DNA of 35,043 nucleotides from Neoechinorhynchus agilis (taxonomy: Eukaryota; Animalia; Acanthocephala), in contig JBMGUZ010000025.1 in the NCBI GenBank assembly GCA_051530055.1, positions 1-35,043 of the forward strand. Reading direction: 5' to 3'. The notes beneath the pieces were generated by a model. That model did not search any database, was not told where the DNA came from, and worked only from the letters and a program-made list of their open reading frames with translations. The first letter of the stretch is position 1. Each line of letters begins with the position of its first letter. This document shows, one piece after another, positions 8,951 to 29,942 of this stretch. The position numbers were made by a program, and so were the translations under genes.

Positions 8951-10872
8951 TCAGCCGCCATTTATTTTCTTCAGCAATTTTTCAAGCAGTCCCTTGTGCC
9001 GAATATTTAAATGATTCGAACGAACTTGACTTAGGATGTTGACCAAATTGTTATTCCGAATTTCACTCAGCGCTATTTCACGTTCAATCATCGCGCTGAG
9101 TATCCGCTTTAGCATCGCGTGGTTCCGAACTGTGAACTTCTCGTCCAAGATGCTTTTTAAACGATCGCAGAGTTCCTTGATGCTCAAGTTCATTTCAATT
9201 GAAGGCTTTGATTTTCTTTTTGAAATCGATTCATTGAGTGGTTTGTCCTTCAATTGTGACCCTGATTTATTTTCGATCGAAATATTGGACATTTCCGTAG
9301 GTTGCCGATTGTAGATTCCCACCATCTTTTTTCCGATTTTATCGATTATGTCGATTAACGGTTCGTTTTCCCCGTTGCTGGCCATCTTATGGAGAATATT
9401 TATAAGATCGGAATCTTTGATTTCATCCACAGTCATCTCTAATTCTGAAATCTCGGAAAGGACATCGTCCACCAGTTCTAGGCTTTTGGTTGCGTATTGT
9501 GAATCCAATAAAAATTTTAGTAATTTAATCTTCTTGGTTAAACAAGAAGGCGGCATCAATTGTTTGGATTCTGAAATCTGTTGACTGTGAACGTTTTCGA
9601 CATTGTGAAGTCCAGTTTCTATTTCTTCATCGCTATTGATTCTCTTCGGCGATTTTGTTCTCTTGTCCGAAATTGCGTTAGAATCCCGATCACTAGAATC
9701 AGTATTTGATATTTCGGGTTCTACTTCTTTTGGTTTATTCAATTTGGGTTTGGCCGCTGGTCTTTCTTTAGATCGATTTTGATTGAAAGCCTCCTTGACC
9801 TTCATAGCAACTTGGATTAAGAGTTTCTTGAGTGGAGCATTATCCTTGTTGTCGAGCATCTCTCCAAGGACATCTATCAATCCGGATTGACGAATTTCAC
9901 TCAGGCTAACTTCGCCCTTCAGAATTTCATCAACGATGCTCCTTAATAAATCAGAATTCACAATTTTGTGCTCAGAGTTCATAGTCATCAAGATTCTTTG
10001 ACGGAGATGTGTTGAATCTGTCCGCTGAATTTTTGTTTTCTCTTCACCTTGAATGGTTGATGACAGTCTCTTCCTTGAAATTTCGTCTTCAAAACTGGAT
10101 TTAGATTTCGTTTCTATCGGACACTGCTCTTCAATCTCAACATCAAACTTTGAGTGGATACCGGACATCGTATGAGATTTATCATCGGCATTTTTACCTT
10201 TCTCCATGCCGAGCACTACTTTAATTTTTGCTGCTACTTCTTTAATCAAATAATCAAGTTCTCCGTTTTCTTTGTTTTGATTCATTTGGTGGAGAATCTT
10301 TATCAGGCCGGACTTACCAATCTGAGAGATGGTCATTTCTTGTTTGAGAATCTCAGAAAAGACACTGGTTACTAAGCTCTTGTTTGTAACCTTAAACTGT
10401 GAGTCCAATCCAATTTTAACTTTTTTAACTAGCATATTTAATGATTTGGACGTTGCCATTTCATAATGGATTCGTCCTTTATCGCTTGAATCTGTCATCT
10501 CCTTTTTCGCCATTACTTCATCTTTATTTGCCCGTTTTCGAGTTGAGGTCGTACTGACCAATGTCTTCGTCGTTTTCATCCTTGGACAATATTTTTCGCC
10601 GACAATCTTTTTGAATTTGCTCTTTAATTTACTTAGGAACCAACTTGTACTTTTGCAATCTTTGTCTACGGCCATTTCGTCTACCATCTCAAGCATCCCA
10701 AAGTTTAAAATTTCTTCGGCTGTAATCGATCGCGTTAACAATTCTCGCAGGTTTCGTTTGGCCAAAGATTGGTTGATTGTACAAGAATCACCGTCGAGAT
10801 TATTCTCAATTCATCACATATTTGAGCGAGTGATTTATCTCTTAGTACTTGATGTTTCCGCTTGATCGCCAT
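8951..10872 (-). pseudogene. Five-repeat TFIIS-N-like protein, left copy; 1-nt frameshift near 10805 separates the ATG (10872) from the 604-codon body
   Basis: Paralog of 26584-28515. ttgagaataatc here versus ttgagagataatc in the right copy, plus a 12-nt in-frame deletion (ASCK). Confidence 0.6.
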
Positions 10873-11229
10873 TTTTGATTCGTTCTCTTGCACTTAAAGA
10901 TAATTGCAAGTATGGTTTTAGTTTTACTGCACCGAAATTGAACGACGTCAATTCGACCTCAATTGGCGTCTTTCAAATGTACAAACATCTGAGATATTGT
11001 CAAACGTGAAATGGAAGCTTTATTTTCATTGTTTTGATGAACTAGTAATCAAAATTAGTACTGAAGAAGAGCTGACAAAAATAATAGCAGCCCAGTAAAA
11101 TGATTTATTGTTCGTAGTAAGAATCTTCATTTGTATGGTAGTTATTTGTCTATATCTTGAGTCTGATTATCATTTTACTTCCTTCTTGACGTCCATAAGG
11201 CTGATATCCGAACCGAGAGATCAGGAAAG

Positions 11230-11445
11230 ATTAGGGAGAATGCGAGATTAAACGTTAAGCTTAATGCTGGAAAGTGTGAGCTCACTGCGGCCCAGGACCT
11301 GGTCTAGGAATTGTCTAAGAGATTGAGACGAATCACTGGCGATCCGAGATCAGGAGCATTCCTCCTACAAAAATCTGCTCTGAAAACGAGAGGGAATGCT
11401 TCATCCGTCCTTTCGACCGTTACACCAAAACGGCATCTCAGGGAT
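11230..11445 (+). mobile_element. Internally deleted CRE-like retrotransposon remnant (inverted copy ~26009-26224)
   Basis: Translation VKLNAGKCEL..*ELSKRLRRITGDPRSGAFLLQK..RGNASSVLST. The RT thumb motif (L.LN..KCE) is fused to the CRE C-terminal motif (RL...TGDPR...FL.QR.S...QRGNAASVLGT). Confidence 0.65.
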
Positions 11446-12428
11446 CCAGAGCGATTGTGTGAATGATTTGATGTCTCAAAAAAATGAGTATGTTTAACAA
11501 AATGTTATCGATACAGAAATCGCTTCTCAATTAACAATTAAATGTTGTCTATGGACTAATTTTAAGATTTTTTCGCTAAGCAAAAAAGGATAAAAATGTC
11601 AAAAAATCAGCATTAATACAAAGTAGCCTTTATCCTGCGAATCAGAAATGCTTTAATGATTTCAATGTAAGTTTTCATTCTTTTACTATTGAGAGACATC
11701 TTCACCAAACTCAGCCATCTTTATTTTCACGATCTCAACATTTCCTCTTACTGATTCGAATCTTCAAATCCAAGTATTTAAGCACAATGGAAAACGTACC
11801 GCCATAATCGTTCAATGGTCAAATGAACCACAATCCTGAAGTGGACTCGTACTCATCGATTCGATGAAAAGCCACGTTCAATACAACGTTCAATCATTTC
11901 ATCTTCAACCGAATCAGCAGTCATTTCTTTTACTCGAGAACAGAATCAAGCAATGAACCTTGCAAAACCACGAGAAAAACATTCGGACTACGCATGATCA
12001 GCACCAAGCAATACAACATACAGTGAAGTCGCCGATGAACTTGTTGGAATCTACTTCGATCATGAAAATCAGGGGATTTTCCATGGTGTGGTTTTGAGAA
12101 TAGCTTAAAAGGTGGCAGATTATAAGAATATAAGAAGATACGTCTATGATGCCATAAATGTTTAAATGGCACTCAATGTAATCACAAAACAGCGAAGGGA
12201 AATTCATTCGTTAGATTTATATCAAATGCCGGAACATAAATGTCCTTTACTAATGGAGGATTTGAGTTGTATAAGAACGAGAATTGAGGCAAAAAGTAAA
12301 AGAATTGAAGAAAATGATCACAAGGCTTTGAATGATAGAGATTTAAAAAATAAAATATTGAAAGCTTTAACGTTACTATTTTCAAAAATATAAGTAGAAT
12401 AGAAATTTTTAAATTAATTTGATGGCCG

Positions 12429-13153
12429 ATGAGCGACGCGATTTCAATTAATGCAGATGGGAAGTTTGAGAATTATTATTCACTGTCAAATAAAACAATT
12501 CCCTGTCCTAACGGCTACATCCACCCGCTTACCGACGACAGATCGCTGGTATTCACTTTTGATCTATATTGCGATCGGAAATTCTTAAAGGATATTCCAC
12601 AGCCAGCCTTTTTCATAGGATCAGTAATTGGGGCAGCCGTTTTGTCAATGTTTGGCGACAACTTTGGTAAGAATCCAATTGCTCTTCTCGGGACTTGGAT
12701 CAATATCATATTCGGAATCGGCTGTGCACTTTCAAACACCATCTAAATCGGATGCACCCGTTCAGTTAAAATCATTATATCTTGTTTATTGATCGGAATC
12801 ATCTTGATATTTTTTATAGTATTCCGTTTTTTTATTTGGAATTTGCTGGCAGATTGGTGAACTTTCTTGTTACATTCTCAGGATTGAAGTTTTTGCGGCA
12901 GAATACCGAGGCACCCGTGTATAATGGCTAATTTCATTTGGGGTATAGGAATGTTGATGTTGGATTTAGTCGCTTATTTTGTTAGAGGATGGCGGAATCT
13001 TTATTTGGCAGTTTATGTTCCAGTCGCAATCACTGTACTCTATTATTGGATTATGAGAGAAAGTTTATTTTGGCTTGCAGTTCATTAACGACAAGCTGAT
13101 GTAAATAAAATATAAACCGAAGCATACAAAATGAATTCAACCAAACAACAAGA
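12429..13153 (+). pseudogene. SLC22/organic cation transporter-like MFS pseudogene, copy 1
   Basis: FDLYCDR..PQPAFFIGSVIGA..SMFGDNFGK, then after a probable 60-nt intron (GT 12760-AG 12819) LFRFF/IG..GELSCYILRIEVFAAEYRG..AYFVRGWRNL..RESLFWL..AYKMN. In-frame TAA stops are shared by all three copies. Confidence 0.8.
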
Positions 13154-13470
13154 GTGCCATTCGCCGTGCTCGTTTGGCCCAGGAACGATGGGTACAAGGT
13201 CGAGTACTTCAAACCGATTTTTTGCTTAGAGGATGAATTCGGCAGATAATACCAGTTCGAAATTTGATTAAGTCGAAGGATATCAATAAGAAACCAACAG
13301 ACTTTACAAAGGATTGTTAAAGCTACGATTTTATATCATTGAAGTTAGGGTTGTAAGCCAAAGACAAAGAACGACTATTAGCGATGTTGAAGAAACCGCT
13401 AGGAACTCACGACCTCGACAGGCGGCGAGCTGGGATGTTGAGCTTTGCAATAAAAAACTTGATGAAGTCA

Positions 13471-13725
13471 GAAAATCCCGCACGTATTCGGTACAAGAAT
13501 CGCGCAAGAGACTGTTAGGAAATAGAGAAATATCAGAAGATTTGGTTCGATGGCGCTATTGTTCCATAGCAATCAAGTGAGCAGGAATCAAGAAAAAGCC
13601 AACTAGTGAATTGAAATCTAAAGTAAATTCCATTGAGTTGGAAAATCCAAAACGTATTCGGTACAGGAATCACGCAAGAGACTGTTAGGAAATAGAGAAA
13701 TATCAGAAGATTTGGTTCGATGGCG
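13471..13725 (+). repeat. 170-bp tandem repeat, 1.5 units
   Basis: acgtattcggtac at 13482 and 13652. The same unit is present as 2.5 copies in B'. Confidence 0.9.
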
Positions 13726-13752
13726 TTAAAAAACTAACAATTTCAACTTATA

Positions 13753-13983
13753 ATGGAGAGTCCTGAAGCCTTTATTGATGCCTTTATTGACAAATTGGTG
13801 GAAACAAGGCAAACTGAAATTAGTGTCGCGAATCTCACTCCTTCGGACGTTGATCCTTCAACAATGCTCCTCGATATGTACAAACTCAGTTTAACTCACC
13901 GATTTCTAAGTTTATTGTCGGACGAAAACAACACAAAATTCATTCTGGCTTTGAATAAAAAAATCATGAGATGTAGGTTTTAA
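13753..13983 (+). CDS. Hypothetical 76-aa ORF (inverted copy 17591-17821)
   Basis: ATG ORF with protein-like composition, open in both arms. No family recognised; probably a gene fragment. Confidence 0.25.
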   Translation: MESPEAFIDAFIDKLVETRQTEISVANLTPSDVDPSTMLLDMYKLSLTHRFLSLLSDENNTKFILALNKKIMRCRF

Positions 13984-14683
13984 CCATCACGCAATGAGGA
14001 TTGCAAATATATTCATGGATGTAAATACTTTTTAACAACTCTCAAAGGAAGCTCTACAAAAGGCCGAAAATGTGCATTTGACCACGATCTCAAGTCGGAA
14101 CACAATCTCCAGGCAGCAAAGTTCCATGGTGCCGATAAAGTAAAAATCCGAACCCTCAAAAAGATCTTATTTATAACGGATTTCGAGACTGGTCGTATGC
14201 TTAGATTGTGTGACGGTTTTGTGATGGATAAAGAGTGCCAGAAGGTTCATGCTTGTTTTTATTTTGTGGCAAGCAATAGTTGCCGATTCGGCCCGAACTG
14301 CCATAGTCGCGGTCGTCCACCCGAACAGCGGCCTATATTCGGCGAGGCCCTTCTACAAAATGCGTCCTTTTTAAGACAAAAAGAGAAGATGGAACTGGTC
14401 AGGAGGTGACAACGACAATGCATGTAGATGAGAAACAAAACGAATAATATAATTATGTGATATAAATTAACTGCCTCTACGATCGCTAAAAATATGGTCA
14501 TGTTCACGACGAAATTGCTCAAATGAATTTCAGCTGGTGCAGTACAACGATTCAATGCTGCCAGCGTGATGGCGACGGTCGAGGAAGGACAAAAGCTGGA
14601 ATTTGGTGGGAGGTGGTGAATGTAAAGAAAAGTAATTTCGAGAATAGTTTTGTTTACTCAAAAAAAAATATGCGTTTAAAAAA

Positions 14684-16826
14684 AAATTGCGACTATGCTT
14701 TATTTTAGAAAAAATTATGAAACTATCACGCCTATCGATTACTGTATTACGTTCAATTTCCACTCTCGGTCGACCGTCCTTGTCTATTGCGTCTTCTACT
14801 GTGGTGCTTTTTTCGTCTTGGTTGCTCGTCATTAATTTCATTGAAGCGATTTGCGCTCCGATCGCAGTAGTCATTAATGTATTTTGTAATAATATCGGCA
14901 TTTTTATTGCCTTCCGCCGTACCGAGTATTCGAGAATTGTGAGCAACTTCAAGGAGATAATGCATGCAAAGTTCCTCCTTTTTCAAAAGATCGACGAATA
15001 CACCCTTATAAAACTGCAAACAAAGTCCAATGAGACTGGAATTCACGAACCCATTGAAGACTCTTGGCTCAAAATTGTTTTGTTGATTCGCTTGGATTTT
15101 GTAATTAAATTGTGGCATCGCTTGAAATGAATATTGTTGATCACAAGGATGGAAGTATGATCTCGGATGAGTAAGGACCTCCAGCATCGTAACGTTTGTC
15201 ATTGAAGGCGGATATAGCACCAAATAAGGATCACAAAAATGCATCGGCGAGAGATTGTGAGTCTAAGAACCCATCAATCGGGAAAATTGGCGGAACATAA
15301 ACAAATAATTAGAGCGTAACATTGAAATGTTTTGTAAACAACTCGATTTGCTTTCCGGCAAATCACGGTATTTATCAGCAAACGTCCGTATTCGAGTGAA
15401 CCCAAAGAATTAGTTGGCCTTTCTAAAGCGCTGTTTTAATTAAAAAAGCAAAAGATATGTGCAGGGGATTGGCTTCAGTATTTTTCACGAGAAATAAAGT
15501 TAATTCCAAATCCCAGTAGTCTACGAGATTTCTAACTAGCAAATTCTATAACCGATTTAAATCGGATTTTATCAAAACTTAAACTTTGGTCACTACGTTG
15601 CGTCCTAACGAATTGGATTTTAGACGTCTAACGTTGCTAATAAAATTTATAATTGCAATAGCTTGAATACTTAGTTACGAAAATTGACATTGAACTGAAT
15701 CCTGCGAGATCACTCTACGCCTGTTACATCTTCTAGGAAGCTCTATTTTTGACTCAAATGTGGAAAAAGAGATTGCCAATCTTCAACTGCAAGTTTCGGT
15801 GCTGTGTGAACGAATTGATGAATTATCCTAACACGAGGCTCAAGATTTATTCGAAGGAAGACATTGGATGATTAACCGACATAATTTATGTGTAGGAATA
15901 ATTATAATTCGATAGTAATAAAGTTATATCATCGCTGTCCATTTAAGCGCTTGTTTCCAGGAGTAAGGGAGTTTGCCCAGAGCCTCTAGGAAAGTGATAA
16001 TGTACTTTAATCATTATTCGGGGGTATTCCTCTAGAGTAAAAAACTAGGCCCGAGATTGCTCAAGAGTTCCAAATGCTTCTGGTATCATGAGAGCAGAGT
16101 CCAAGTTTAAAAGATCTTCTGCATTTAAGCTTAGCGACACTTAAGTTTTTTGAATTTGCGGAGGTCGTAGGGTGTTTCCCAAGATTGTGATCTTATTAGA
16201 AACTGACGACGAGGTCAGATTAAAAAATTGTTTATAAAATTCGCGAACACGTTGTTTATCAAAAACCGACTAAGATTTTAAAATAAATTTCGTCTTTAAA
16301 GGGTCTGAAGGAGAATAGAATTAAGACATGACAGTAAATCTGAGAGTTTCCTTACAGCGGCTAGGTAGTTCGCTTCCTTGATCACCGCATTGAAATCGTC
16401 TGCATATAGGGTTAATTCATTGCAGACTCGGCAGTTCTTAAGCAGAAATTGGGAAGCAAATTAGAAGAGGATGAGTGAGAGAGGGGACCCTTGCGGAACT
16501 CCTTTAGTTTGATGATAAATCTTGAGAGATGTGTCATCTTGATAAAAAAATTGCTTAGACTGAAAATAACAAAGGATCTTTATTATAAAAGCGATATCAA
16601 TGCTATCAAAAGCCTTAGAGATATCGAAGGAAATTAAAATGTTCATTGACTCCTGATTCGAATTAAAATTGGTGATAATTTCAGACAAAGCCGTCTGAAC
16701 GGATTTATGGGGTAAAAAACCGTGGCATCCGTGGTCGATGCAATTAGTGCCCGTTCGTAGATTGAAACCAGTGAGTTCTGAATGGATATTGGACGAACAT
16801 CTCCACCGGCTACGCATTTTGTAGAA
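14684..16826 (-). repeat. Inverted duplication A' lying in the spacer between B and B'
   Basis: Reverse complement of 2378-4544. Includes the 163-aa copy of the orphan ORF (14753-15244) and RT fragment 2. Confidence 0.95.
14753..15244 (-). CDS. Hypothetical 163-aa protein, copy of 3960-4475
   Basis: Identical translation except for the 8-aa GRSTESGK duplication. Confidence 0.35.
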   Translation of the reverse strand: MHFCDPYLVLYPPSMTNVTMLEVLTHPRSYFHPCDQQYSFQAMPQFNYKIQANQQNNFEPRVFNGFVNSSLIGLCLQFYKGVFVDLLKKEELCMHYLLEVAHNSRILGTAEGNKNADIITKYINDYCDRSANRFNEINDEQPRRKKHHSRRRNRQGRSTESGN

Positions 16827-17121
16827 AATGACAACGATTTCAAATTGTTTTCTAGGCTAAAGTCCTTAGAACAGTTCAAATGATCCGAGTGAGCACAATC
16901 TCGTGTTTTTTTGTTAAATTCTCTGACGCATCGGAGACTCCGAGAAGGTCACAGCGACCAGTTCATCATAACCTTAATGCACCACGTTACATATGCGATC
17001 TTTGAGGAAATTTTCTCATGCGATTAAGAAAAGGAAGGCAACAGAGAATAAAAATGTTTCACCTTTCACTAAAACAAATTGGTTTTTTACTTCTAATTGT
17101 TCATGCCGGTTATGCTCCAAA

Positions 17122-17277
17122 AAAGAAGAAGTTTACAAACCGTCTGGACTTGAATTGGTGAATTTAGCGGTTCGGGTGGACGACCGCGACTATGCCAGTA
17201 AAGAAGAAGTTTACAAACCTTCTGGACTTGAATTGGTGAATTTAGCTGTTCGGGTGGACGACCGCGACTATGGCAGT
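17122..17277 (+). repeat. 78-bp tandem duplication (2 units) straddling the inner end of arm B'
   Basis: aaagaagaagtttacaaacc at 17122 and 17200. Encodes KEEVYKPSGLELVNLAVRVDDRDY(A/G)S twice. Confidence 0.9.
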
Positions 17278-17849
17278 TCGGGCCGAATCGGCAACTATTG
17301 CTTGCCACAAAATAAAAGCAAGTATGAACCTTCTGGCACTCTTTATCCATCACAAAACCGTCACACAATCTAAGCATACGACCAGTCTCGAAATCCGTTA
17401 TAAATAAGATCTTTTTGAGGGTTCGGATTTTTACTTTATCGGCACCATGGAACTTTGCTGCCTGGAGATTGTGTTCCGACTTGAGATCGTGGTCAAATGC
17501 ACATTTTCGGCCTTTTGTAGAGCTTCCTTTGAGAGTTGTTAAAAAGTATTTACATCCATGAATATATTTGCAATCCTCATTGCGTGATGGTTAAAACCTA
17601 CATCTCATGATTTTTGTATTCAAAGCCAGAATGAATTTTGTGTTGTTTTCGTCCGACAATAAACTTAGAAATCGGTGAGTTAAACTGAGTTTGTACATAT
17701 CGAGGAGCATTGTTGAAGGATCAACGTCCGTAGGAGTGAGATTCGCGACACTAATTTTAGTTTGCTTTGTTTCCACCAATTTGTCAATAAAGGCATCATT
17801 AAAGGCTTCAGGACTCTCCATTATAAGTTGAAATTGTTAGTTTTTTCAA

Positions 17850-18274
17850 CGCCATCGAACCAAATCTTCTGATATTTCTCTATTTCCTAACAGTCTCTTG
17901 CGTGATTCCTGTACCGAATACGTTTTGGATTTTCCAACTCAATGGAATTTACTTTAGATTTCAATTCACTAGTTGGCTTTTTCTTGATTCCTGCTCACTT
18001 GATTGCTATGGAACAATAGCGCCATCGAACCAAATCTTCTGATATTTCTCTATTTCCTAACAGTCTCTTGCGTGATTCCTGTACCGAATACGTTTTGGAT
18101 TTTCCAACTCAATGGAATTTACTTTAGATTTCAATTCACTAGTTGGCTTTTTCTTGATTCCTGCTCACTTGATTGCTATGGAACAATAGCGCCATCGAAC
18201 CAAATCTTCTGATATTTCTCTATTTCCTAACAGTCTCTTGCGCGATTCTTGTACCGAATACGTGCGGGATTTTC
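17850..18274 (-). repeat. 170-bp tandem repeat, 2.5 units
   Basis: gccatcgaaccaaatc at 17851, 18021 and 18191. Confidence 0.9.
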
Positions 18275-18591
18275 TGACTTCATCAAGTTTTTTATTGCAA
18301 AGCTCAACATCCCAGCTCGCCGCCGGTGGAGGTCGTGAGTTCCTAGCGGTTTCTTCAACATCGCTAATAGTCGTTCTTTGTCTTTGGCTTACAACCCTAA
18401 CTTCAATGATATAAAATCGTAGCTTTAACAATCCTTTGTAAAGTCTGTTGGTTTCTTATTGATATCCTTCGACTTAATCAAATTTCGAACTGGTATTATC
18501 TGCCGAATTCATCCTCTAAGCAAAAAATCGGTTTGAAGTACTCGACCTTGTACCCATCGTTCCTGGGCCAAACGAGCACGGCGAATGGCAC

Positions 18592-19437
18592 TCTTGTTGT
18601 TTGGTTGAATTCATTTTGTATGCTTCGGTTAATATTTTATTTACATCAGCTTGTCGTTAATGAACTGCAAGCCAAAATAAACTTTCTCTCATAATCCAAT
18701 AATAGAGTACAGTGATTGCGACTGGAAGATAAACTGCCAAATAAAGATTCCGCCATCCTCTAACAAAATAAGCGACTAAATCCAACATCAACATTCCTAC
18801 ACCCCAAATGAAATTAGCCATTATACACGGGTGCCTCGGTATTCTGCCGCAAAAACTTCAATCCTGAGAATGTAACAAGAAAGTTGACCAATCTGCCAGC
18901 AAATTCCAAATAAAAAAACGGAATACTATAAAAAATATCAAGATGATTCCGATCAATAAACAAGATATAATGATTTTAACTGAACGGATGCATCCGATTT
19001 AGATGGTGTTTGAAAGTGCACAGCCGATTCCGAATATGATATTGATCCAAGTCCCGAGAAGAGCAATTGGATTCTTACCAAAGTTGTCGCCAAACATTGA
19101 CAAAACGGCTGCCCCAATTACTGATCCTATGAAAAAGGCTGGCTGTGGAATATCCTTTAAGAATTTCCGATCGCAATATAGATCAAAAGTGAATACCAGC
19201 GATCTGTCGTCGGGAAGCGGGTGGATGTAGCCGTTAGGACAGGGAATTGTTTTATTTGACAGTGAATAATAATTCTCAAACTTTCCATCTGCATTAATTG
19301 AAATCGCGTCGCTCATCGGCCATCAAATTAATTTAAAAATTTCTATTCTACTTATATTTTTGAAAATAGTAACGTTAAAGCTTTCAATATTTTATTTTTT
19401 GAAGCTCTATCATTCAAAGCCTTGTGATCATTTTCTT
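18592..19437 (-). repeat. ~845-bp direct repeat left of the insert (partner 24307-25149); contains SLC22 pseudogene copy 2 (18592-19316)
   Basis: Begins tcttgttgtttggttgaattc and ends gtgatcattttctt in both copies; ~98-99% identical by eye. Confidence 0.95.
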
Positions 19438-19470
19438 TTCTTGATTCCTGCTCACTTGATTGCTATGGAA
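19436..19470 (+). repeat. 35-nt templated insertion copied from the 170-bp repeat (17979-18013 or 18149-18183)
   Basis: Exact match ttttcttgattcctgctcacttgattgctatggaa, with a 2-nt overlap with the end of the direct repeat. Confidence 0.9.
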
Positions 19471-22400
19471 AACTTGCTACGTTAGCCAAAGAGAATCGAA
19501 GGCGGATATGAGCGTTTATCTTCACTTGGATTGCAAAGAGAGGTCCTATCGTGATGACATCATACTGGCCCCTACAGCTTCTAGGATGAAAAGCTCCTCG
19601 AAAAGTGACATCTGATCGGACCCCGTCGACGAACCCTTTCAACGTGACGAGAGGCATAAGCTCCGGAGTGCATGGCTCATTAAGTCCTACCATAAAGGGT
19701 TCGAGATTATCCGTTTGGACGATAGACCAAACTGAATTATTCAGGAAAAACTTAGAAGTAAGTTCATCTTCCGTGGTATGGGAGGAGAGCCACCAGGACA
19801 CTCCGAGCGAAGTCCTGCCATTGTTCTCAGAATATGTTGTAGGCCCCGTGCCAATAGAAACCCCAAGTAATTTGGAAACCATAACCCAATGAAGAATAGT
19901 CCTTTCATATACGACGGTGACATTTGGGTCTTGAGCCCATGCAGCAAAGGCTCTGGCTAGAGGGACGCCCATATAAGCGTTTATAATACCTAGAATAGTC
20001 CTGTCGCTTTTTGGAAGTAGATCGGAAGGCGAGCCTAGGGTCCAAGAGGATTCGGGTACTATAGTCTTGACTGAAACCTGCATCGTATCAAGACGCATGC
20101 TTAATTTGTGGATGGCAAGTCTGAGACGAGGCAAAATGTTCGGCGCTGAGTAATACTTCAATTCATTTTCCGGGATAGTTCTTGTTCGAGTAGCCGGTAA
20201 ATCAGACACCCTCAGAAGACCGAGTTGGACCAAGGGGTAGAAGTAGAAACCGGGATCGTAGTCCCAAGCTATTCTGATACCCGAAGTATAGGGGACTTCT
20301 AATCTACCCATAAACTGGAAGTTAAGAGTATTGTTCGATAGCGCCAAATAAGACAGGAGTTCCTCCTGACAAGGGATCTCGTCAAGAGGTTCGTTTGGGA
20401 AAGAACCGTTCAGAATAGACAAACCGAGACTATCATATGGGAAGGGGCCAAGCCCGTTGGAGCGGGGATAGTAAAACCTTTGAACCCGAGTCTCCATCTC
20501 CTCCAAAGTGACAGTCACTACAATAAAGATTTTACCGGGTTGTTTAGCGAAGGCATCCATCAAGGCGAAGAAATGTTCTTCTGTTCCGGAGACATTCATA
20601 TAAATCTCATCAGTAAGAACCGGGTTCCAGACGGTAGCAACTAATCGAAAGAGTTGTTCCGCCGGAGCCGGAAAGTACTGTTCCATAAGAGCGAGGGTCC
20701 GGCCATCAAACGCTGAACTGTGGACGTCAGGTCCTTCATTCCATAAGAGATTGTTAACCGCCACACTCTTAAAAAACTCAACTACGGACACACGTAACCA
20801 CACTACCTCGAATGGTTGGCACACCCACATACGAGTGATGGTGCCGTCTAAACGAGTATTTCCATTAGGTGGTGGGGCGGTCACTTCCGGATAATTGTCT
20901 GTGGATAAGATAGCTCGCATCCGAGCAAATGTCGCAGGAGATCCATCGCGGTAATGATCGAGAGCCGACGATCCATACAATGTCAGGTAGGCCATCTTCT
21001 CGTTCCGACGACGGAGCAAGGGCGCTACGTGGCTAACGGTGTTTAGAAGACGGGTGAAGTCCATCCGTGCTGATGTGTCCAAATCGTCGGACAAGATTAA
21101 ACTGAATATTCTGTCATGACACGGACCGCTTGAGACTGTAGCCGGAGGATTCATAGGTTGCGGTGATAGAGTGTAGAGCACGTTAGCGTCGCAGTTGGTA
21201 CCAGCTCTTAGAACGGTTTCTTGTTCACGCCACAGCTCATTGTGTTCAGCACCAATCACACCAGAAGTAGAGTAGGAAAGCCCCAAGGAGAAGCAAAGAG
21301 GCCCGTAGCATTCAGCCAGGTGGGGCAAAACTCCGAGATAGTAGTCTAGGGTTTGCCTCTCTTCCTGATCTTTATCCTTATAAAAGGAAATATTGTTCTC
21401 TGCTATCTTCTTGGCAGTATCACTAAGAAAGGCGTCATCATCCATACAGGTAAGACCTATCGTATGAAGGAATCTGGGTTCTTGAGCAGCAATGATACCC
21501 AATTTGGTGGTAGGTAAAGTGCGAAAGAGGGAATAGTTCCCGGCCAATGCAGTGGTGACTTTGAAGACATGGCTAGACGATTGCACAGATTCGACAGTCA
21601 TCCGATATCCAATTGGGACATAGGGCCCGGAAACAGGATTGCCGTTGATAGCGTGCATAAGGCGGTTCCACTCGTCAGCAAGCCTCTTAGCGTAGCCATC
21701 ACCACCAGCCAGAACGGAGGAGATGTAAGAACTAGTAAAAGTGCTCACACCGTTTCCAGCTCTATGGATGATATCATCCGACGAAAGCCAACCTGACGTG
21801 TAGAATTGCCTGAAATGTCCATTTCTAAGCGACGAAAGTAGAGCAATGCGCCTAGAGGCGCGCCATTCTAGATTTTCAATCAATTCGCTCTGGCCGTTCA
21901 GGGTATCTAACTCTTTGCAGAATGCAGCACACAAGCGTTGATTACGAGAGTTGAGTCCGTGCGCTAGAGCACGCAACATAGGCTGGTTATTTCTGTGGGC
22001 GAAGCAAAGACCCATAAGACGCTTCTTCGAGGTGCCAATCTTGTTGAGAAGGAAGTGGGCACGAACTCGAACGTCATTACGGATTTTGTGATCAATTCCC
22101 TCAGATTTTTCGGTTATGGTCGTAGCCCCAACGAACGCACTTTCATGCTTAAAGTTTCGTATGGCGGCCTCCATATCCCGAGTAAAGGATCCATTCTTAT
22201 CAGTGGGGACGAAAGTGTTGAACTTCTTATAGCCATCGCGTTTCTCTCTTTTGTCCACTCGGACGTATTCCATCTGACCTAGAGTAGCCCTGCTTATGTA
22301 AGCTAGAAAAGCAGTTCCTAAGTCGACAGGACTACTAGGCAAAGAATCCAGATCCAGGTCGTCACAGTATGTAGTCATGATTGGGAGATCATCTAGATAT

Positions 22401-22957
22401 GCCAAAGCCTGAATTTCCTCCACAACCTTTTCTATCAATGTAAGGCTCGAATCAATCTTAAGTTGTGCTTCCCTCAAATCATCTAGAATCTTCAGAAGGA
22501 CGGGATCACGTGGACGTTTGACTAGAGCCTCTCGTGTTGACTCCACTTGTTTCTTATTTTGTGACAGAAGCTCTTTGAAATCGATCCTCTTCTTAGCCAA
22601 GACTTTCTCGATGGTTGCTCGAAGTTTAGCCCGTGTTTTCGTAGGATTAGCACTGTGTAGCAGATCAGCTGGGGAAGCTTCGAGAATCCGAGCGATAGCG
22701 GAGAGCTCACCCTGCGGCACTAAAGTTTCTTCGGGCTGAGCAGAACGGCTAAAACTAATGTCTTCTGAAGGCCTAACCAGAACGGTGTCAACTTGTTTCT
22801 TTTGGTCCATAAGAGGAGTCGAGAGCTGCGGCCCAATGGCTGACTGGACACAGCCCGGGAAGGCGGAAGCTAGAGCTGCTCTACTTCTAGTGAGCAAAGT
22901 TCTTGTCATCATCTCGACACGAGCGTGTGTAGTTGGTAGGGCATCGAAGGTGGGCAT
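19463..22957 (-). CDS. 1164-aa uninterrupted ORF of unknown, probably viral, origin (N-terminal coiled-coil; possible capping/methyltransferase-type or structural protein)
   Basis: A 3.5-kb open frame cannot arise by chance. Heptad-like region at aa ~105-185. Motifs LYGSSALDH (G662), NPVLTDEIY (E784), VSIGTGP (G1036), GFVDGVRSD (G1108). The last two codons and the stop come from host sequence. Confidence 0.8.
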   Translation of the reverse strand: MPTFDALPTTHARVEMMTRTLLTRSRAALASAFPGCVQSAIGPQLSTPLMDQKKQVDTVLVRPSEDISFSRSAQPEETLVPQGELSAIARILEASPADLLHSANPTKTRAKLRATIEKVLAKKRIDFKELLSQNKKQVESTREALVKRPRDPVLLKILDDLREAQLKIDSSLTLIEKVVEEIQALAYLDDLPIMTTYCDDLDLDSLPSSPVDLGTAFLAYISRATLGQMEYVRVDKREKRDGYKKFNTFVPTDKNGSFTRDMEAAIRNFKHESAFVGATTITEKSEGIDHKIRNDVRVRAHFLLNKIGTSKKRLMGLCFAHRNNQPMLRALAHGLNSRNQRLCAAFCKELDTLNGQSELIENLEWRASRRIALLSSLRNGHFRQFYTSGWLSSDDIIHRAGNGVSTFTSSYISSVLAGGDGYAKRLADEWNRLMHAINGNPVSGPYVPIGYRMTVESVQSSSHVFKVTTALAGNYSLFRTLPTTKLGIIAAQEPRFLHTIGLTCMDDDAFLSDTAKKIAENNISFYKDKDQEERQTLDYYLGVLPHLAECYGPLCFSLGLSYSTSGVIGAEHNELWREQETVLRAGTNCDANVLYTLSPQPMNPPATVSSGPCHDRIFSLILSDDLDTSARMDFTRLLNTVSHVAPLLRRRNEKMAYLTLYGSSALDHYRDGSPATFARMRAILSTDNYPEVTAPPPNGNTRLDGTITRMWVCQPFEVVWLRVSVVEFFKSVAVNNLLWNEGPDVHSSAFDGRTLALMEQYFPAPAEQLFRLVATVWNPVLTDEIYMNVSGTEEHFFALMDAFAKQPGKIFIVVTVTLEEMETRVQRFYYPRSNGLGPFPYDSLGLSILNGSFPNEPLDEIPCQEELLSYLALSNNTLNFQFMGRLEVPYTSGIRIAWDYDPGFYFYPLVQLGLLRVSDLPATRTRTIPENELKYYSAPNILPRLRLAIHKLSMRLDTMQVSVKTIVPESSWTLGSPSDLLPKSDRTILGIINAYMGVPLARAFAAWAQDPNVTVVYERTILHWVMVSKLLGVSIGTGPTTYSENNGRTSLGVSWWLSSHTTEDELTSKFFLNNSVWSIVQTDNLEPFMVGLNEPCTPELMPLVTLKGFVDGVRSDVTFRGAFHPRSCRGQYDVITIGPLFAIQVKINAHIRLRFSLANVASFP

Positions 22958-24306
22958 GAAAACGCAGTGACAAGCGCGCCTTTTTCGAGTTCGCAGTCCG
23001 ACAGAAGTTTGAGTCTAAAAAGTTGAACGGCAAAAAGAGAGCGGATTAGGAGAAGATTGGATGAATCCCTTTTTATCTTGATAGTATGATATGATTTGGT
23101 AGTTTCAAAGATTTCTCGAATCGAGAGTTCATTATTCATGTCTAGGTTTAGAAAAGCCCGATTAAACAAGTAATGGGCCCAGGCGTGGATATTCTTTTTC
23201 GAAGATGCCGCTAACGCAATTTTCTTCCGACAGTTCGCGCAGGTCTTACGTTGGTGGTTAACGTAGACGGCATAATAATCGGAAGGACTGAGCGTTGTTC
23301 CAGAAGGAAGGTCCACCTCGTAATCACTGATTTGTTCTGGCTTTAAGCAGCATGGCTGCGCGATGTCCTTGTAGAATGCGAGGAATGCATCTAAGAATAT
23401 CTTCTGCTCGTTATGGGGCGTATCGAGAGGTACAGCTGCTAATTCAAAACCCCCGTTTGTCTAGAAGCAGTTCCGTGCAAGGAGCAGGTAGCCTGGAAAA
23501 GTTCGTCCGGACGACGGGAAAATACTGCTAAAGCAAATCCAACCAGATCTTTTAAATGACCAGTAGCCAAACGACAGATACCAAGAGTTTTCCAGTTAGC
23601 AGGATCACCGGTAGAGAGTGGCACGACGGCCTCGGACACAGAAGACCCGGCAACAAAGGTCTGCGGTAATGAAGTAGTTGCCTCATACCAAAGGTCGGAG
23701 CAAGCGCAACGGATGATATGTTACAAGTGTTCGCGCTTGAACTCAGAACTGAGGTGGAAGGTGAATATTGCGGCAGTGGTCTCTGCCTTCAGCGTCGCCT
23801 GGGCGGTGGGTATCTCTCTCATCTACACACTTGGCGCTAGAAGCGTCCACAGATACACCCTGACCGCCTCGCGGCTCGTACCTAGCGATGATTTGGGCAA
23901 CGAGCCGATCCTTCGAAAAACTACCGGCATTGCGGAGCCCAAGAGTTGGATTTGGGGCTTCACGCATATATCCAATAGGTTTATCCGCACACGGGGCCTG
24001 GGGGGGGGGAAAGACTTTCCCGACAGCGGCACACCTTTCTTCACACATTCACTACTTTCTACACTCACACCACGAGGCAGATTGATAGTACAGCAATCGA
24101 CATCTCGACCAGAGACGATGGGAACGCTAAGGTATAGGGCGATTCCCAGCTCGCTCGATCGGGATGAAGACGCCAGTACTAATCAATCGCTCGAGTTCAC
24201 TAACATGCGCTTCTTTCATTGAGTTGGTTTGGTTCATTACGCGAGTTTGGGCCTCTGAATCATCGGCTATTAGTTCTATATCGTCGTCAAGTGAAAAAAT
24301 ATTTGA
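19471..24306 (-). mobile_element. Foreign insert, candidate endogenous non-retroviral viral element (~4.8 kb)
   Basis: Absent from arm B. GC ~45-50% versus ~30% in the flanks. No introns. Coding-like frames run up to both junctions (truncated at each end). No transposase, RT, integrase or terminal repeats of its own. Confidence 0.6.
22958..24306 (-). pseudogene. Broken upstream continuation of the insert ORF (several frames, in-frame stops)
   Basis: Overlapping coding-like frames: IFSLDDDIELIADD..ELERLIS; ..APSV*(23823-25)MREIPTAQ..EHL*(23721-23)HIIRCAC..HGTASR; TNGGFELAAVP..KTCANC..HAWAH..AVQLFR. Adjacent frames can be joined by 1-nt indels in homopolymers. Confidence 0.55.
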
Positions 24307-25149
24307 TCTTGTTGTTTGGTTGAATTCATTTTGTATGCTTCGGTTTATATTTTATTTACATCAGCTTGTCGTTAATGAACTGCAAGCCAAAATAAACTTT
24401 CTCTCATAATCCAATAATAGAGTACAGTTATTGCGACTGGAACATAAACTGCCAAATAAAGATTCCGCCATCCTCTAACAAAATAAGCGACTAAATCCAA
24501 CATCAACATTCCTATACCTCAAATGAAATTAGCCATTATACACGGGGTGCCTCGGTATTCTGCCGCAAAAACTTCAATCCTGAGAATGTAACAAGAAAGT
24601 TGACCAATCTGCCAGCAAATTCCAAATAAAAAAACGGAATACTATAAAAAATATCAAGATGATTCCGATCAATAACAAGATATAATGATTTAACTGAACG
24701 GATGCATCCGATTTAGATGGTGTTTGAAAGTGCACAGCCGATTCCGAATATGATATTGATCCAAGTCCCGAGAAGAGCAATTGGATTCTTACCAAAGTTG
24801 TCGCCAAACATTGACAAAACGGCTGCCCCAATTACTGATCCTATGAAAAAGGCTGGCTGCGGAATATCCTTTAAGAATCCGATCGCAATATAGATCAAAA
24901 GTGAATACCAGCGATCTGTCGTCGGGAAGCGGGTGGATGTAGCCGTTAGGACAGGGAATTGTTTTATTTGACAGTGAATAATAATTCTCAAACTTCCCAT
25001 CTGCATTAATTGAAATCGCGTCGCTCATCATCCATCAAATTAATTTAAAAATTTCTATTCTACTTATATTTTTGAAAATAGTAACGTTAAAGCTTTCAAT
25101 ATTTTATTTTTTGAAGCTCTATCATTCAAAGCCTTGTGATCATTTTCTT
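24307..25149 (-). repeat. ~845-bp direct repeat right of the insert; contains SLC22 pseudogene copy 3 (24307-25031)
   Basis: Direct copy of 18592-19437 and inverted copy of 12308-13153. Confidence 0.95.
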
Positions 25150-26583
25150 CAATTCTTTTACTTTTCGCCCCAATTCTCGTTCTTATACAACTCAAATCCT
25201 CCATTAGTAAAGGACATTTATGTTCCGGCATTTGATATAAATCTAACGAATGAATTTCCCTTCGCTGTTTTGTGATTACATTGAGTGCCATTTAAACATT
25301 TATGGCATTATAGACGTATCTTCTTATATTCTTATAATCTGCCACCTTTTCAGCTATTCTCAAATCCACACCATGGAAAATCCCCTGATTTTCATGATCG
25401 AAGTGGATTCCAACAAGTTAATCGGCGACTTCACTGTATGTTGTATTGCTTGGTGCTGATCATGCGTAGTCCGAATGTTTTTCTCGTGGTTTTGCAAGGT
25501 TCATTGCTTGATTCTGTTCTCGAGTAGAAATGACTGCTGATTCGGTTGAAGATGAAATGATTGAACGTTGTATTGAACGTGGCTTTTCATCGAATCGATG
25601 AGTACGAGTCCACTTCAGGATTGTGGTTCATTTGACCATTGAACGATTATGGCGGTACGTTTTCCATTGTGCTTAAATACTTGGATTTGAAGATTCGAAT
25701 CAGTAAGAGGAAATGTTGAGATCGTGAAAATAAAGATGGCTGAGTTTGGTGAAGATGTCTCTCAATAGTAAAAGAATGAAAACTTACATTGAAATCATTA
25801 AAGCATTTCTGATTCGCAGGATAAAGGCTACTTTGTATTAATGCTGATTTTTTGACATTTTTATCCTTTTTTGCTTAGCGAAAAAATCTTAAAATTAGTC
25901 CATAGACAACATTTAATTGTTAATTGAGAAGCGATTTCTGTATCGATAACATTTTGTTAAACATACTCATTTTTTTGAGACATCAAATCATTCACACAAT
26001 CGCTCTGGATCCCTGAGATGCCGTTTTGGTGTAACGGTCGAAAGGACGGATGAAGCATTCCCTCTCGTTTTCAGAGCAGATTTTTGTAGGAGGAATGCTC
26101 CTGATCTCGGATCGCCAGTGATTCGTCTCAATCTCTTAGACAATTCCTAGACCAGGTCCTGGGCCGCAGTGAGCTCACACTTTCCAGCATTAAGCTTAAC
26201 GTTTAATCTCGCATTCTCCCTAATCTTTCCTGATCTCTCGGTTCGGATATCAGCCTTATGGACGTCAAGAAGGAAGTAAAATGATAATCAGACTCAAGAT
26301 ATAGACAAATAACTACCATACAAATGAAGATTCTTACTACGAACAATAAATCATTTTACTGGGCTGCTATTATTTTTGTCAGCTCTTCTTCAGTACTAAT
26401 TTTGATTACTAATTCATCAAAACAATGAAAATAAAGCTTCCATTTCACGTTTGACAATATCTCAGATGTTTGTACATTTGAAAGACGCCAATTGAGGTCG
26501 AATTGACGTCGTTCAATTTCGGTGCAGTAAAACTAAAACCATACTTTAGTATTGTCTTTAAAGTGCAAGAGAACGAATCAAAA

Positions 26584-28515
26584 ATGACGATCAAGCGAAC
26601 ATCAAATGCTAAGGATAAATCACTCGCTCAAATATGTGATGAATTGAGAGATAATCTCGACGGTGATTCTTGTACAATCAACCAATCTTTGGCCAAACGA
26701 AACCTGCGAGAATTGTTAACGCGATCGATTACAGCCGAAGAAATCTTAAACTTTGGGATGCTTGAGATGGTAGACGAAATGGCCGTAGACAAAGATTGCA
26801 AAAGTACAAGTTGGTTCCTAAGTAAATTAAAGAGCAAATTCAAAAAGATTGTCGGCGAAAAATATTGTCCAAGGATGAAAACGACGAAGACATTGGTCAG
26901 TACGACCTCAACTCGAAAACGGGCAAATAAAGATGAAGTAATGGCGAAAAAGGAGATGACAGATTCAAGCGATAAAGGACGAATCCATTATGAAATGGCA
27001 ACGTCCAAATCATTAAATATGCTAGTTAAAAAAGTTAAAATTGGATTGGACTCACAGTTTAAGGTTACAAACAAGATCTTAGTAACCAGTGTCTTTTCTG
27101 AGATTCTCAAACAAGAAATGGCCATCTCTCAGATTGGTAAGTCCGGCCTGATAAAGATTCTCCACCAAATGATTCAAAACAAAGAAAACGGAGAACTTGA
27201 TTATTTGATTAAAGAAGTAGCAGCAAAAATTAAAGTAGTGCTCGGCATGGAGAAAGGTAAAAATGCCGATGATAAATCTCATACGATGTCCGGTATCCAC
27301 TCAAAGTTTGATGTTGAGATTGAAGAGCAGTGTCCGATAGAAACGAAATCTAAATCCAGTTTTGAAGACGCGAGCTGTAAAGAAATTTCAAGGAAGAGGC
27401 TGTCATCAACCATTCAAGGTGAAGAGAAAACAAAAATTCAGCGGACAGATTCAACACATCTCCGTCAAAGAATCTTGATGACTATGAACTCTGAGCACAA
27501 AATTGTGAATTTTGATTTATTAAGGAGCATCGTTGATGAAATTCTGAAGGGCGAAGTTAGCCTGAGTGAAATTCGTCAATCCGGATTGATAGATGTCCTT
27601 GGAGAGATGCTCGACAACAAGGATAATGCTCCACTCAAGAAACTCTTAATCCAAGTTGCTATGAAGGTCAAGGAGGCTTTCAATCAAAATCGATCTAAAG
27701 AAAGACCAGCGACCAAACCCAAATTGAATAAACCAAAAGAAGTAGAACCCGAAATATCAAATACTGATTCTAGTGATCGGGATTCTAACGCAATTTCGGA
27801 CAAGAGAACAAAATCGCCGAAGAGAATCAATAGCGATGAAGAAATAGAAACGGGACTTCACAATGTCGAAAACGTTCACAGTCAACAGATTTCAGAATCC
27901 AAACAATTGATGCCGCCTTCTCGTTTAACCAAGAAGATTAAATTACTAAAGTTTTTATTGGATTCGCAATACGCAACCAAAAGCCTAGAACTGGTGGACG
28001 ATGTCCTTTGCGAGATTTCAGAATTAGAGATGACTGTGGATGAAATCAAAGATTCCGATCTTATAAATATTCTCCATAAGATGGCCAGCAACGGGGAAAA
28101 CGAACCGTTAATCGACATAATCGATAAAATCGGAAAAAAGATGGTGGGAATCTATAATCGGCAACCTACGGAAATGTCCAATATTTCGATCGAAAATAAA
28201 TCAGGGTCACAATTGAAGGACAAACCACTCAATGAATCGATTTCAAAAAGAAAATCAAAGCCTTCAATTGAAATGAACTTGAGCATCAAGGAACTCTGCG
28301 ATCGTTTAAAAAGCATCTTGGACGAGAAGTTCACAGTTCGGAACCACGCGATGCTAAAGCGGATACTCAGCGCGATGATTGAACGTGAAATAGCGCTGAG
28401 TGAAATTCGGAATAACAGTTTGGTCAACATCCTAAGTCAAGTTCGTTCGAATCATTTAAATATTCGGCACAAGGGACTGCTTGAAAAATTGCTGAAGAAA
28501 ATAAATGGCGGCTGA
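26584..28515 (+). CDS. 643-aa protein with five divergent ~75-aa helical repeats resembling the TFIIS N-terminal domain (TND/LW), separated by low-complexity charged linkers
   Basis: Intact ORF; ATG at 26584 in aaaATG context. Repeats such as VDDVLCEISELEMTVDEIKDSDLINILHKMASNGENEPLIDIIDKIGKK pattern-align to TFIIS [50 protein letters not shown]. The repeats are seen directly; the domain identity is inferred. Confidence 0.7.
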   Translation: MTIKRTSNAKDKSLAQICDELRDNLDGDSCTINQSLAKRNLRELLTRSITAEEILNFGMLEMVDEMAVDKDCKSTSWFLSKLKSKFKKIVGEKYCPRMKTTKTLVSTTSTRKRANKDEVMAKKEMTDSSDKGRIHYEMATSKSLNMLVKKVKIGLDSQFKVTNKILVTSVFSEILKQEMAISQIGKSGLIKILHQMIQNKENGELDYLIKEVAAKIKVVLGMEKGKNADDKSHTMSGIHSKFDVEIEEQCPIETKSKSSFEDASCKEISRKRLSSTIQGEEKTKIQRTDSTHLRQRILMTMNSEHKIVNFDLLRSIVDEILKGEVSLSEIRQSGLIDVLGEMLDNKDNAPLKKLLIQVAMKVKEAFNQNRSKERPATKPKLNKPKEVEPEISNTDSSDRDSNAISDKRTKSPKRINSDEEIETGLHNVENVHSQQISESKQLMPPSRLTKKIKLLKFLLDSQYATKSLELVDDVLCEISELEMTVDEIKDSDLINILHKMASNGENEPLIDIIDKIGKKMVGIYNRQPTEMSNISIENKSGSQLKDKPLNESISKRKSKPSIEMNLSIKELCDRLKSILDEKFTVRNHAMLKRILSAMIEREIALSEIRNNSLVNILSQVRSNHLNIRHKGLLEKLLKKINGG

Positions 28516-29942
28516 TATTATCAATCATCGCTGATTTACCCATGTTTAAGAGACGATTGACCAAGGATAAAATATTGTTCATGATATTCAAGGAGCTTTT
28601 ATTCGTAGTCGCAACTATCTATGCATTCTGTTCAAAGAATGAATAAATTTGTGTTTCGGAAAGCCTTTCATTTCGAAAATTCTTGATGAATTCTACACGA
28701 TAAATATAATTTAAAAATATAATTTTTCACATCCATGATGTATATTTTTTCGACGCTATTGGGGAATGTGATTTGGAGTTTGACAATATCGCATGGAAAT
28801 AAAAGCTATCGAAACTCACAGGATTCATAGTTATCATCGGCAAGTTTTAATGAGTCTGAAATCAAATTGCAAAGAAAAAATCACTCTATGACCAAAAATG
28901 TTTTTAAGATTTTCTAAATGAAAAAATGCCTGAGTGAATTTCTATAAGCCGAATTTATTAACGCCTTGGCTGACAGCACTTAAACAAATAAGTTTGAAAT
29001 GTCAAAGGAGAATGAATGTTCAAAAGAAATTTCCAAGAAAAAAAGATTTATTAAAACTTAAAAGGCAAAGAACACGTCATTTGCAAAATGTTGATAATTG
29101 AGGTACCGGGGACAATGATTGGAATTATTGTTTAATTCTTTATCCGGTAAATGATTTTTTTATTATAGATGTTTCGAACCTCGTCAAGTTCATCTTCTTT
29201 AATAAAAAATCATTCACCGGATGAAGAGCTTAACAATAATACGTATTTTGCGATTTAAGTTCAACATTTATAAAATTTCACAGATTGTATTTGATATCAA
29301 TACGATAGATTGTAATTTCGTTCAAATAACAAAAATAATTTGAGGGAAAATGACAGAAAATAATGAAAGTACGAATTTTGATATTACTAGAAAGTACTGA
29401 ATATTTTTGCGGAAATAAAAAGGATTTCTTGGAAACACTTTTATAAGCATCACTGATTTTGAAAATCGAAATGAAGTCTTATTATTAAGTTCAGTAAACG
29501 CATCGACAGCCGTAAGGATAAAATACTCCCGCTTTAGATTTTTAAGTAAAGAAATTAATCGACTAATTGAATCTGCTTAAAAGAATATTGACGAAAAATA
29601 AATCACTGTTACATCAATAAGTTGATAGACGAGATTGAAATTTGGGAACTTTAAAAAGCTTAGATAATTTCTTTCAAATTAAAAAAGAGTAGAGACAAAA
29701 ACCTTTTTATTTGATACAACAAATAAGACATTGAACGGGATTATTGTTCAAATTCTTTGAGTGATTGCTAAATGGCGAAGTTCACTTCGTCCCTTAGAAC
29801 ATTCGATGGACATTCGTCTTATGATTTCGGTCAATTCCTAGTATTATTGTTGTCCAGCAAAATAAGCCAAGCATAGCTCATAATTTTCTAACTGATTTGC
29901 GAAGTGTAGTTGGGTAACCATGAAACGTTAAACAATTTATAA

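Follow-up and report, generated by a model that had tools for sequence, protein, structure and literature searches.

A truncated DNA copy, very probably of a toti-like double-stranded RNA virus capsid-polyprotein gene, in the genome of the acanthocephalan Neoechinorhynchus agilis

The window analyzed here is a complete, unplaced contig of 35,043 bp (JBMGUZ010000025.1) from the genome assembly of the acanthocephalan Neoechinorhynchus agilis. It contains an insert, beginning at position 19463, with a long open reading frame (ORF) on the minus strand. An earlier note, based on the letters alone, had proposed that the insert was captured from an RNA virus whose lineage could not be placed. The insert is very probably a truncated DNA copy of the capsid-polyprotein gene (ORF1) of a toti-like double-stranded RNA (dsRNA) virus, residing in the N. 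agilis genome. Its parts are as follows; proteins of the family are identified by P numbers.

19463 to 23014, minus strand: open frame of 1183 codons from stop to stop, most likely the downstream, C-terminally truncated part of a viral ORF1; NCBI model ACOME3_010569 (P0008)
22958 to 24207, minus strand: broken upstream part of the same putative ORF1, located by tblastn with P0007, P0016, P0017, and P0018
21668 to 22957, minus strand: predicted precursor part upstream of the cleavage motif, largely helical in a low-confidence model
21638 to 21667, minus strand: predicted capsid-releasing motif NRLMHAINGN (residues 450–459, with P next at 460), of the NKxMHxxNGN type with R for K
19471 to 21637, minus strand: predicted major capsid protein, ~722 residues versus 778–785 in three fuller copies
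19436 to 19470, no strand assigned: 35-bp piece of a host 170-bp tandem repeat at the left junction, which supplies the stop codon of the ORF
24208 to 24306, minus strand: right junction zone, into which a host transporter frame runs on to ~24270

Read from the ATG at 22957, the ORF comprises 1164 codons, and the probability of an open frame this long arising by chance at the local composition is ~1e-25. The sharp step in GC content described previously was confirmed, with 0.479 across 19463–24306 versus 0.379 in the left flank and 0.351 in the right; shorter GC-rich patches are found elsewhere in the window (1–1000 and 5001–5500). In tblastn searches, virus-like homology spanned 24207 to 19471, ~4.7 kb with ~1580 codons, in agreement with the ~1600 codons of coding potential estimated in the earlier note. 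The region above 22957 is homologous to residues 209–636 of P0007, and also to P0016–P0018. Its reading frame shifts near 23815, 23452, and 22960 and meets a stop codon at 23723; two further frame switches, near 24130 and 24005, are probable. At the other end, the C-terminal ~60 residues of P0002, P0004, and P0005 are missing from the window ORF, whose last letters and stop codon derive from the host tandem repeat piece. The length given in the earlier note was correct, but "intact" is too strong a description for a frame that is open yet forms the downstream part of a longer, frameshifted ORF, with its C terminus lost and its stop borrowed. The 8-residue first exon of the NCBI model for P0008, drawn from the broken upstream region, is probably an annotation artifact. 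The right end of the insert, formerly set at 24306, lies at ~24210–24265, as the transporter frame continues to ~24270 and virus homology begins at 24207. No RNA-dependent RNA polymerase (RdRp) was found within the window, and the window ORF alone gave no match in Pfam at the cut-off (the Pfam scan of the window covered selected ORFs), in a PDB sequence search, or in the ESM Atlas.

A first protein search with the ORF returned six N. agilis proteins at 55–99% identity, and an exhaustive search of 1.84 billion representatives gave 21 matches, 20 of which are N. agilis gene models. In total, 25 N. agilis models besides the window's own match the ORF at 26–99% identity, and three scaffolds (19.4, 16.4, and 7.8 Mb) and six contigs (20–69 kb) carry these paralogues. 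What had been described as a single capture is one of many. No cellular or transposon homologue of the ORF, the outcome that the earlier note had set against its own proposal, was found among the 1.84 billion representatives, and Pfam scans of the ORF family detected no transposase, integrase, or reverse transcriptase (RT) domain. At 73% or 55% identity, sequences decaying neutrally should have accumulated ~14–17 or 23–27 stops, respectively; P0002 and P0005 nonetheless align over ~1160 residues, albeit as gene models, which may skip stops as introns. Alignments of that length at such divergence suggest that the sequences diverged mostly in viruses, before separate integrations, and several integrations from a diverse, persistent virus population offer the simplest reading. 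The sole homologue of the predicted capsid outside the named genome is P0028, from a 2124-nt Logan contig (27% over ~140–170 aa, E 6e-6), which may be part of the capsid of a related virus. Nothing was found when viral contigs were scanned with P0032 and P0028.

The tie between this family and a virus is provided by sister copies. In P0010 (2578 aa), an RdRp (RdRP_1, E 1.9e-7; RdRP_4, E 2.8e-5) comes after the family ORF, which is present through its C-terminal end and shows 76% identity to the query across 1114 aa. At another locus, P0005 (ACOME3_000485), 55% identical to the query, is followed by the RdRp P0011 (ACOME3_000486; RdRP_4, E 5.5e-10) under a consecutive locus tag, and P0011 is 61% identical to the RdRp of P0010. 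The ORF and the RdRp have thus diverged in step. P0012 represents the N-terminal half of an RdRp, and P0012, P0002, and P0004 are each found on a 59-kb contig. The arrangement of a capsid ORF1 upstream of an RdRp ORF2 is therefore present in P0010 and in P0005/P0011 at the level of gene models, and the link between the two ORFs is inferred from these models and the locus tags.

Outside the worm, the RdRp profile matched only Molossus totiviridae 1 (34%, E 2.7e-72) and Schistocephalus solidus toti-like virus 3 (SsTV3; 33%, E 2.2e-67). It had no PDB match, and in the ESM Atlas the first match for the RdRp was an RdRP_4-bearing viral cluster (0.96). Scans of viral contigs with P0011 and the RdRp alignment recovered distant toti-like loci only, mostly at 21–33% over long matches. 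In a midpoint-rooted tree of 39 RdRps, the two worm RdRps, SsTV3, and the Molossus virus formed a long-stemmed clade with a bootstrap of 100; support for the sister group of that clade was only 61. The tree retained 35 of the 62 fetched toti-like loci, leaving out those with an RdRp ORF of <450 aa or too little sequence around motif B, and P0011 covers only the C-terminal half. From these relationships, the likely source lineage can be placed among the toti-like dsRNA viruses (Ghabrivirales), in the SsTV3/Molossus clade. The proposal of a captured RNA virus gene is thereby upheld, with no cellular or transposon homologue and a family tied to a viral RdRp; the view that its lineage was unplaceable is superseded, and the gene is most likely ORF1.

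Assignment to ORF1 was aided by a short motif. Infectious myonecrosis virus (IMNV) and Omono River virus, both artiviruses, release their major capsid protein by cleavage after the sequence NKxMHxxNGN, according to the available text of PMC7968656. The sole PDB match of the N. agilis family profile was Omono River virus ORF1 (E 0.63), aligned on its two cleavage motifs. Of the 10 family proteins covering the site (with P0001 and P0008 taken as one), 8 have the strict motif, and in the other two, P0015 and P0025, it is degenerate. For a control, toti-like contigs were picked by RdRp alone; a relaxed motif occurred in 7 of 21 of their large non-RdRp ORFs, 876–977 residues before the ends, compared with 0 of 245 other ORFs and 1 of 20,000 shuffles. 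When the family profile was run against 266 ORFs of the 62 fetched toti-like loci, matches were confined to the motif, the best (E 0.0014) being to L006. Judged from sequence comparison, the window ORF is most likely a truncated form of the ORF1 that encodes the capsid polyprotein in a toti-like dsRNA virus; this identity rests on the position of the family ORF before the RdRp, its size, and the motif.

The NxxM/QHxxNGN form of the motif was carried by loci L006 (in two copies), L007, L008, L011, L014, L016, and L023. These carriers fall in separate parts of the RdRp tree, so the motif is not exclusive to artiviruses; it is perhaps a general marker for otherwise unalignable capsids. An alignment of the seven motif-bearing capsids gave no PDB capsid match. 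The N. agilis family was not filed as an artivirus because neither a 2A-like motif nor a dsRNA-binding domain was found: NPG is absent from the three minus-strand frames of the insert and NPGP from every family protein, and there is no dsRBM Pfam match in the preserved part (the upstream part is broken and perhaps incomplete). The RdRp tree contains no named artivirus, and the nearest named relatives are SsTV3 and Molossus totivirus 1.

A different origin for the ORF, as a worm-specific gene family or an unknown transposon with RdRp neighbors that are accidental in repeat clusters, would account for the occurrence of nearly all homologues in one genome. Structure prediction gave no capsid fold, and some gene models fuse the ORF to other things, such as a zinc knuckle in P0017 and an RdRp-like tail in P0006. 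Such an origin is nevertheless very unlikely given the ORF-then-RdRp order at two loci with matching divergence, the viral cleavage motif at the expected distance from the end, the foreign GC content, the lack of a transposase, integrase, or RT domain, and the P0028 homologue outside the genome.

The fused models merit description in their own right. The zinc knuckle joined to the viral ORF in P0017 (zf-CCHC, E 0.008) is a weak hint of retroelement chimeras. P0015 and P0018 fuse the viral ORF to a segment that the two have in common. The tail of P0016, which has no Pfam match, may resemble a non-LTR (long terminal repeat) endonuclease. P0015, P0016, P0017, and P0018 are possible virus-retroelement chimeras. 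In P0006 (ACOME3_009941), residues 417–777 form a second RdRp-like tail with an SGDD sequence (RdRP_4, E 0.065) and no match to SsTV3, and this tail is probably from another endogenous dsRNA virus lineage in N. agilis.

The surroundings of the insert include an 847-bp direct repeat that was not mentioned in the earlier note, with one copy on each side and a third elsewhere in the contig.

18592 to 19437, minus strand: left copy of the 847-bp direct repeat, a degenerate sugar/MFS transporter fragment (Sugar_tr, E 0.0023, under the curated cut-off)
24307 to 25149, minus strand: right copy, 98.3% identical (Sugar_tr, E 0.0039, under the curated cut-off)
12308 to 13153, plus strand: the same segment as a single copy in the insert-free inverted arm, located by sequence comparison

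The left arm of the contig (7952–14329) is an inverted copy of 17245–19437 plus 24307–29670 without the insert, in accord with the earlier statement that the insert is present in one arm only. This empty arm bears the outer junctions of both the right and the left repeat copies. Recombination between the repeats could have deleted the insert from it, or it could be the target with which a circle recombined; the sequence is compatible with both.

Near-identical direct repeats on both sides, together with a single copy in the other arm that resembles a solo LTR, raise the idea that the insert is the interior of an LTR-type element. The repeat is, however, a transporter fragment without TG...CA ends on either strand, the transporter frame passes the repeat end at the right to reach ~24270, and there is no gag or pol domain inside the insert. 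The LTR retrotransposon reading was rejected on these grounds, its likelihood being close to nil. For the same reasons (its transporter content, its ends, and the continuing frame), the repeat is not a target-site duplication. A short target-site duplication was also considered and rejected; neither junction shows one, and neither shows an RT or poly(A). Of the RT families said in the earlier note to surround the site, the scan of selected ORFs found fragments only at 1497–2093 and 2279–2743, ~17 kb from the insert.

Four sequencing runs were compared over 17000–26500. X1 is DNA by guess and may be the assembly's own sample, X2 and X3 are RNA by guess only, and X8 is raw whole-genome shotgun data from another study with the same species label, of which ~12% of the reads were used. 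X1 contigs match 19464–20747 and 24013–24330 without any difference, the latter crossing the right junction, and a loose end of X2 at 24296 matches the continuation of the transporter frame with scattered changes. X8 depth is ~3–13x over 21121–23656 and 0–0.7x over 19536–20486; the family is thus present as DNA in an independent sample, in which the window copy is absent or >10% diverged. Paralogue models on multi-megabase scaffolds, X8 reads, and X1 contigs all place the virus-derived sequence in host DNA. About half of the X8 reads (5424 of 11,123) show only 90–95% likeness, with differences at many positions of the host flanks; these could come from divergent paralogues, from a divergent population, or from a cryptic species.

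An assembly chimera or contaminant might be suspected in an unplaced contig built of inverted and direct duplications, in which the left junction is not strictly bridged and part of the insert is missing from X8. This is highly improbable. Paralogues lie on three multi-megabase scaffolds, the frameshifts and stops reflect decay as DNA, the X1 contig crosses the right junction unchanged, and the DNA reads of X8 hold related copies. Furthermore, an RNA virus enters a DNA assembly only if it has been copied to DNA.

Several observations weigh against a captured capsid gene at this locus. The window copy carries no RdRp, and the ORF-RdRp order is known from sister gene models, not from sister-locus DNA. 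P0006 joins the ORF to a different RdRp-like tail, so clusters of viral pieces can adjoin unrelated fragments. No named ORF1 of SsTV3 or the Molossus virus matched the query in the searches run, and the PDB match to Omono River virus is not significant alone. An hhalign comparison of the putative capsid with the profile of the seven motif-bearing capsids gave a probability of 0.2%. Structure prediction with Foldseek, a check suggested in the earlier note, was uninformative: AlphaFold models of 912 and 722 aa reached predicted local distance difference test (pLDDT) scores of 31.6 and 34.3, and Foldseek gave no meaningful match. The T=1 totivirus/BTV-like fold of such capsids did not emerge from these models. 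The linkage of insert to flanks by reads, another suggested check, succeeded at the right junction in X1; the left junction was crossed by just 30 host letters (X3, 19441–20347), below the 31-letter rule. Finally, the near-zero X8 depth over 19536–20486 leaves the exact copy unconfirmed in the independent sample.

The distribution of breaks also raises the idea that the window copy, of the same viral origin, stays open under host selection and yields a protein, e.g., a capsid decoy that restricts live virus. The clear breaks, of which there are at least four, are all confined to the upstream 26% of the insert, and the 3.5-kb ORF contains none (0.26^4 ~0.005, calculated post hoc). Contigs from the presumed RNA runs X2 and X3 cover most of 19441–23014 at a depth of 5–18 and follow the ORF, with zero coverage over 23023–23339. 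The available text of PMC10636211 offers a precedent in the planthopper toti-like element ToEVE14. Such co-option is improbable. The sister copy P0003, 99% identical to the window ORF, loses its frame after residue 774; the stop is borrowed from a repeat, the C terminus is lost, and X8 lacks the 3' part. The same skew in breaks would result if an older and a younger copy had been combined into a mosaic, or from upstream assembly errors. Expression is only hinted at, since contigs cannot reveal strand, start, or level, and X2 and X3 may include DNA.

Other features of the contig are recorded here. The contig consists of nested inverted duplications (7952–14329 versus 17245–29670; 2378–4544 versus 14684–16826) that are 97–99% identical with indels. 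Read depth in the flanks far exceeds that of the insert, which suggests a multi-copy, rearranging region in which partial misassembly is possible. A duplicated intronless ORF (26482–28515, plus strand; 8951–10810, minus strand) encodes 677 and 619 aa from stop to stop. Helical units recur within it, it has no Pfam match at the cut-off, and it may resemble TFIIS N-terminal repeats. Fragments with PARP12-like tandem CCCH zinc fingers (17093–17590, minus strand; 13984–14409, plus strand; E 1.3e-5, just under the cut-off) occur ~2 kb from the viral insert, at a depth of 59–100 in X2 and X3. Fingers of the PARP12/ZAP type are antiviral RNA binders. A short, very-high-copy repeat at 26020–26170 (~1140x in X8 versus 30–240x on the near flanks) probably represents a small mobile element. 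At 5922–6395 on the plus strand lies a fragment of the host gene for signal recognition particle receptor beta (SRPRB, E 3.9e-11), an ordinary gene of eukaryotes. The frame at 33290–33823 has no Pfam match.

In the proposed origin of the insert, the virus likely infected Neoechinorhynchus. The product of its ORF1, at least ~1640 residues long, would be cleaved behind the NGN that ends the motif (residues 450–459) to yield a major capsid protein of ~780 residues, and its ORF2 would encode an RdRp like those adjoining the sister copies. DNA copies of viruses made by retroelements are a general route to genome integration. In this case, a host retroelement likely copied viral RNA into DNA that was then joined into a rearranging region rich in repeats, and capture was likely repeated many times from several virus strains to give the ~25 pieces. 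The window copy cannot encode a virus because it is without the RdRp, the 5' part of the frame, and the capsid C terminus. The likeliest role for it is none, or that of a template for antiviral small RNAs. PIWI-interacting RNAs (piRNAs) with a ping-pong signature and PIWI are described in N. agilis in the available text of a preprint (10.1101/2024.08.01.605096).

Among known systems, SsTV3 (QJD26160) and Molossus totivirus 1 (WNK88928) have the nearest RdRps to those of the N. agilis sister copies (33–34%). The available text describes SsTV3 as belonging to an undescribed taxon and as passing vertically in its tapeworm host (PMC7305300), and the bat-liver viruses fall within a clade that their authors named Platyhelminthes, as far as the available text states (PMC10819564). 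Like the N. agilis element, SsTV3 comes from a parasitic worm, in its case a parasite of fish, but its host phylum is Platyhelminthes rather than Acanthocephala. SsTV3 and Molossus totivirus 1 are exogenous, and SsTV3 is reported, in the source text available, to be absent from its own host genome, whereas the N. agilis copies are endogenous. The long ORF1 polyprotein of IMNV and Omono River virus, with its NKxMHxxNGN motif before a C-terminal capsid, has its counterpart in the N. agilis ORF (PMC7968656, available text). The N. agilis family nevertheless lacks capsid similarity to these viruses beyond the motif, its predicted capsid is ~780 versus ~900 aa, and the nearest named relatives of its RdRp are other viruses.

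Toti-like endogenous elements are already well documented in arthropods, and the N. agilis case would add Acanthocephala. Planthoppers and other arthropods carry toti-like endogenous viral elements (ToEVEs), many polymorphic, partly transcribed fragments per genome according to the available text of PMC10636211; N. agilis likewise has many related fragments in its genome. The ToEVEs differ in having arthropod hosts. Searches with the acanthocephalan ORF returned no named viral homologue. In the acanthocephalan Pomphorhynchus laevis, rhabdovirus-like RdRp elements form a multi-copy, divergent (mean 60%), fragmented family of RNA-virus origin (PMC12548735, available text), again as here. Those elements derive from the polymerase gene of a negative-strand virus and are all on unplaced contigs, unlike the N. 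agilis ORF family. No earlier report of toti-like viruses or elements in Acanthocephala was found in a literature search that did not extend to supplements and most subscription journals. Viruses are not mentioned, outside the references, in the available main text of two N. agilis papers (including PMC12690905), and a flatworm virome preprint does not mention acanthocephalans.

A far-reaching extension would hold that acanthocephalans harbor a persistent, uncatalogued dsRNA virus family whose capsid processing resembles that of artiviruses, which are transmitted from cell to cell; that the worm has archived it repeatedly; and that at this locus the capsid-precursor frame stays open and is expressed as a domesticated antiviral protein. 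That combination is improbable. The very probable capture of a toti-like capsid gene has consequences of its own. A toti-like clade that is still unclassified, with members so far from a tapeworm and bat liver, becomes linked to parasitic worms of a second phylum, and the presence of a virus in endogenous form is a good indication of which host it truly infects. Approximately 25 "hypothetical proteins" of a small parasite genome would gain an identity, and their sequences would serve as probes for live virus. The predicted capsid-cleavage motif, NxxMHxxNGN, would be extended to a lineage of the SsTV3/Molossus type. Because N. agilis retains a piRNA pathway, the possibility that antiviral piRNAs are made from such viral archives can be tested with small-RNA data.

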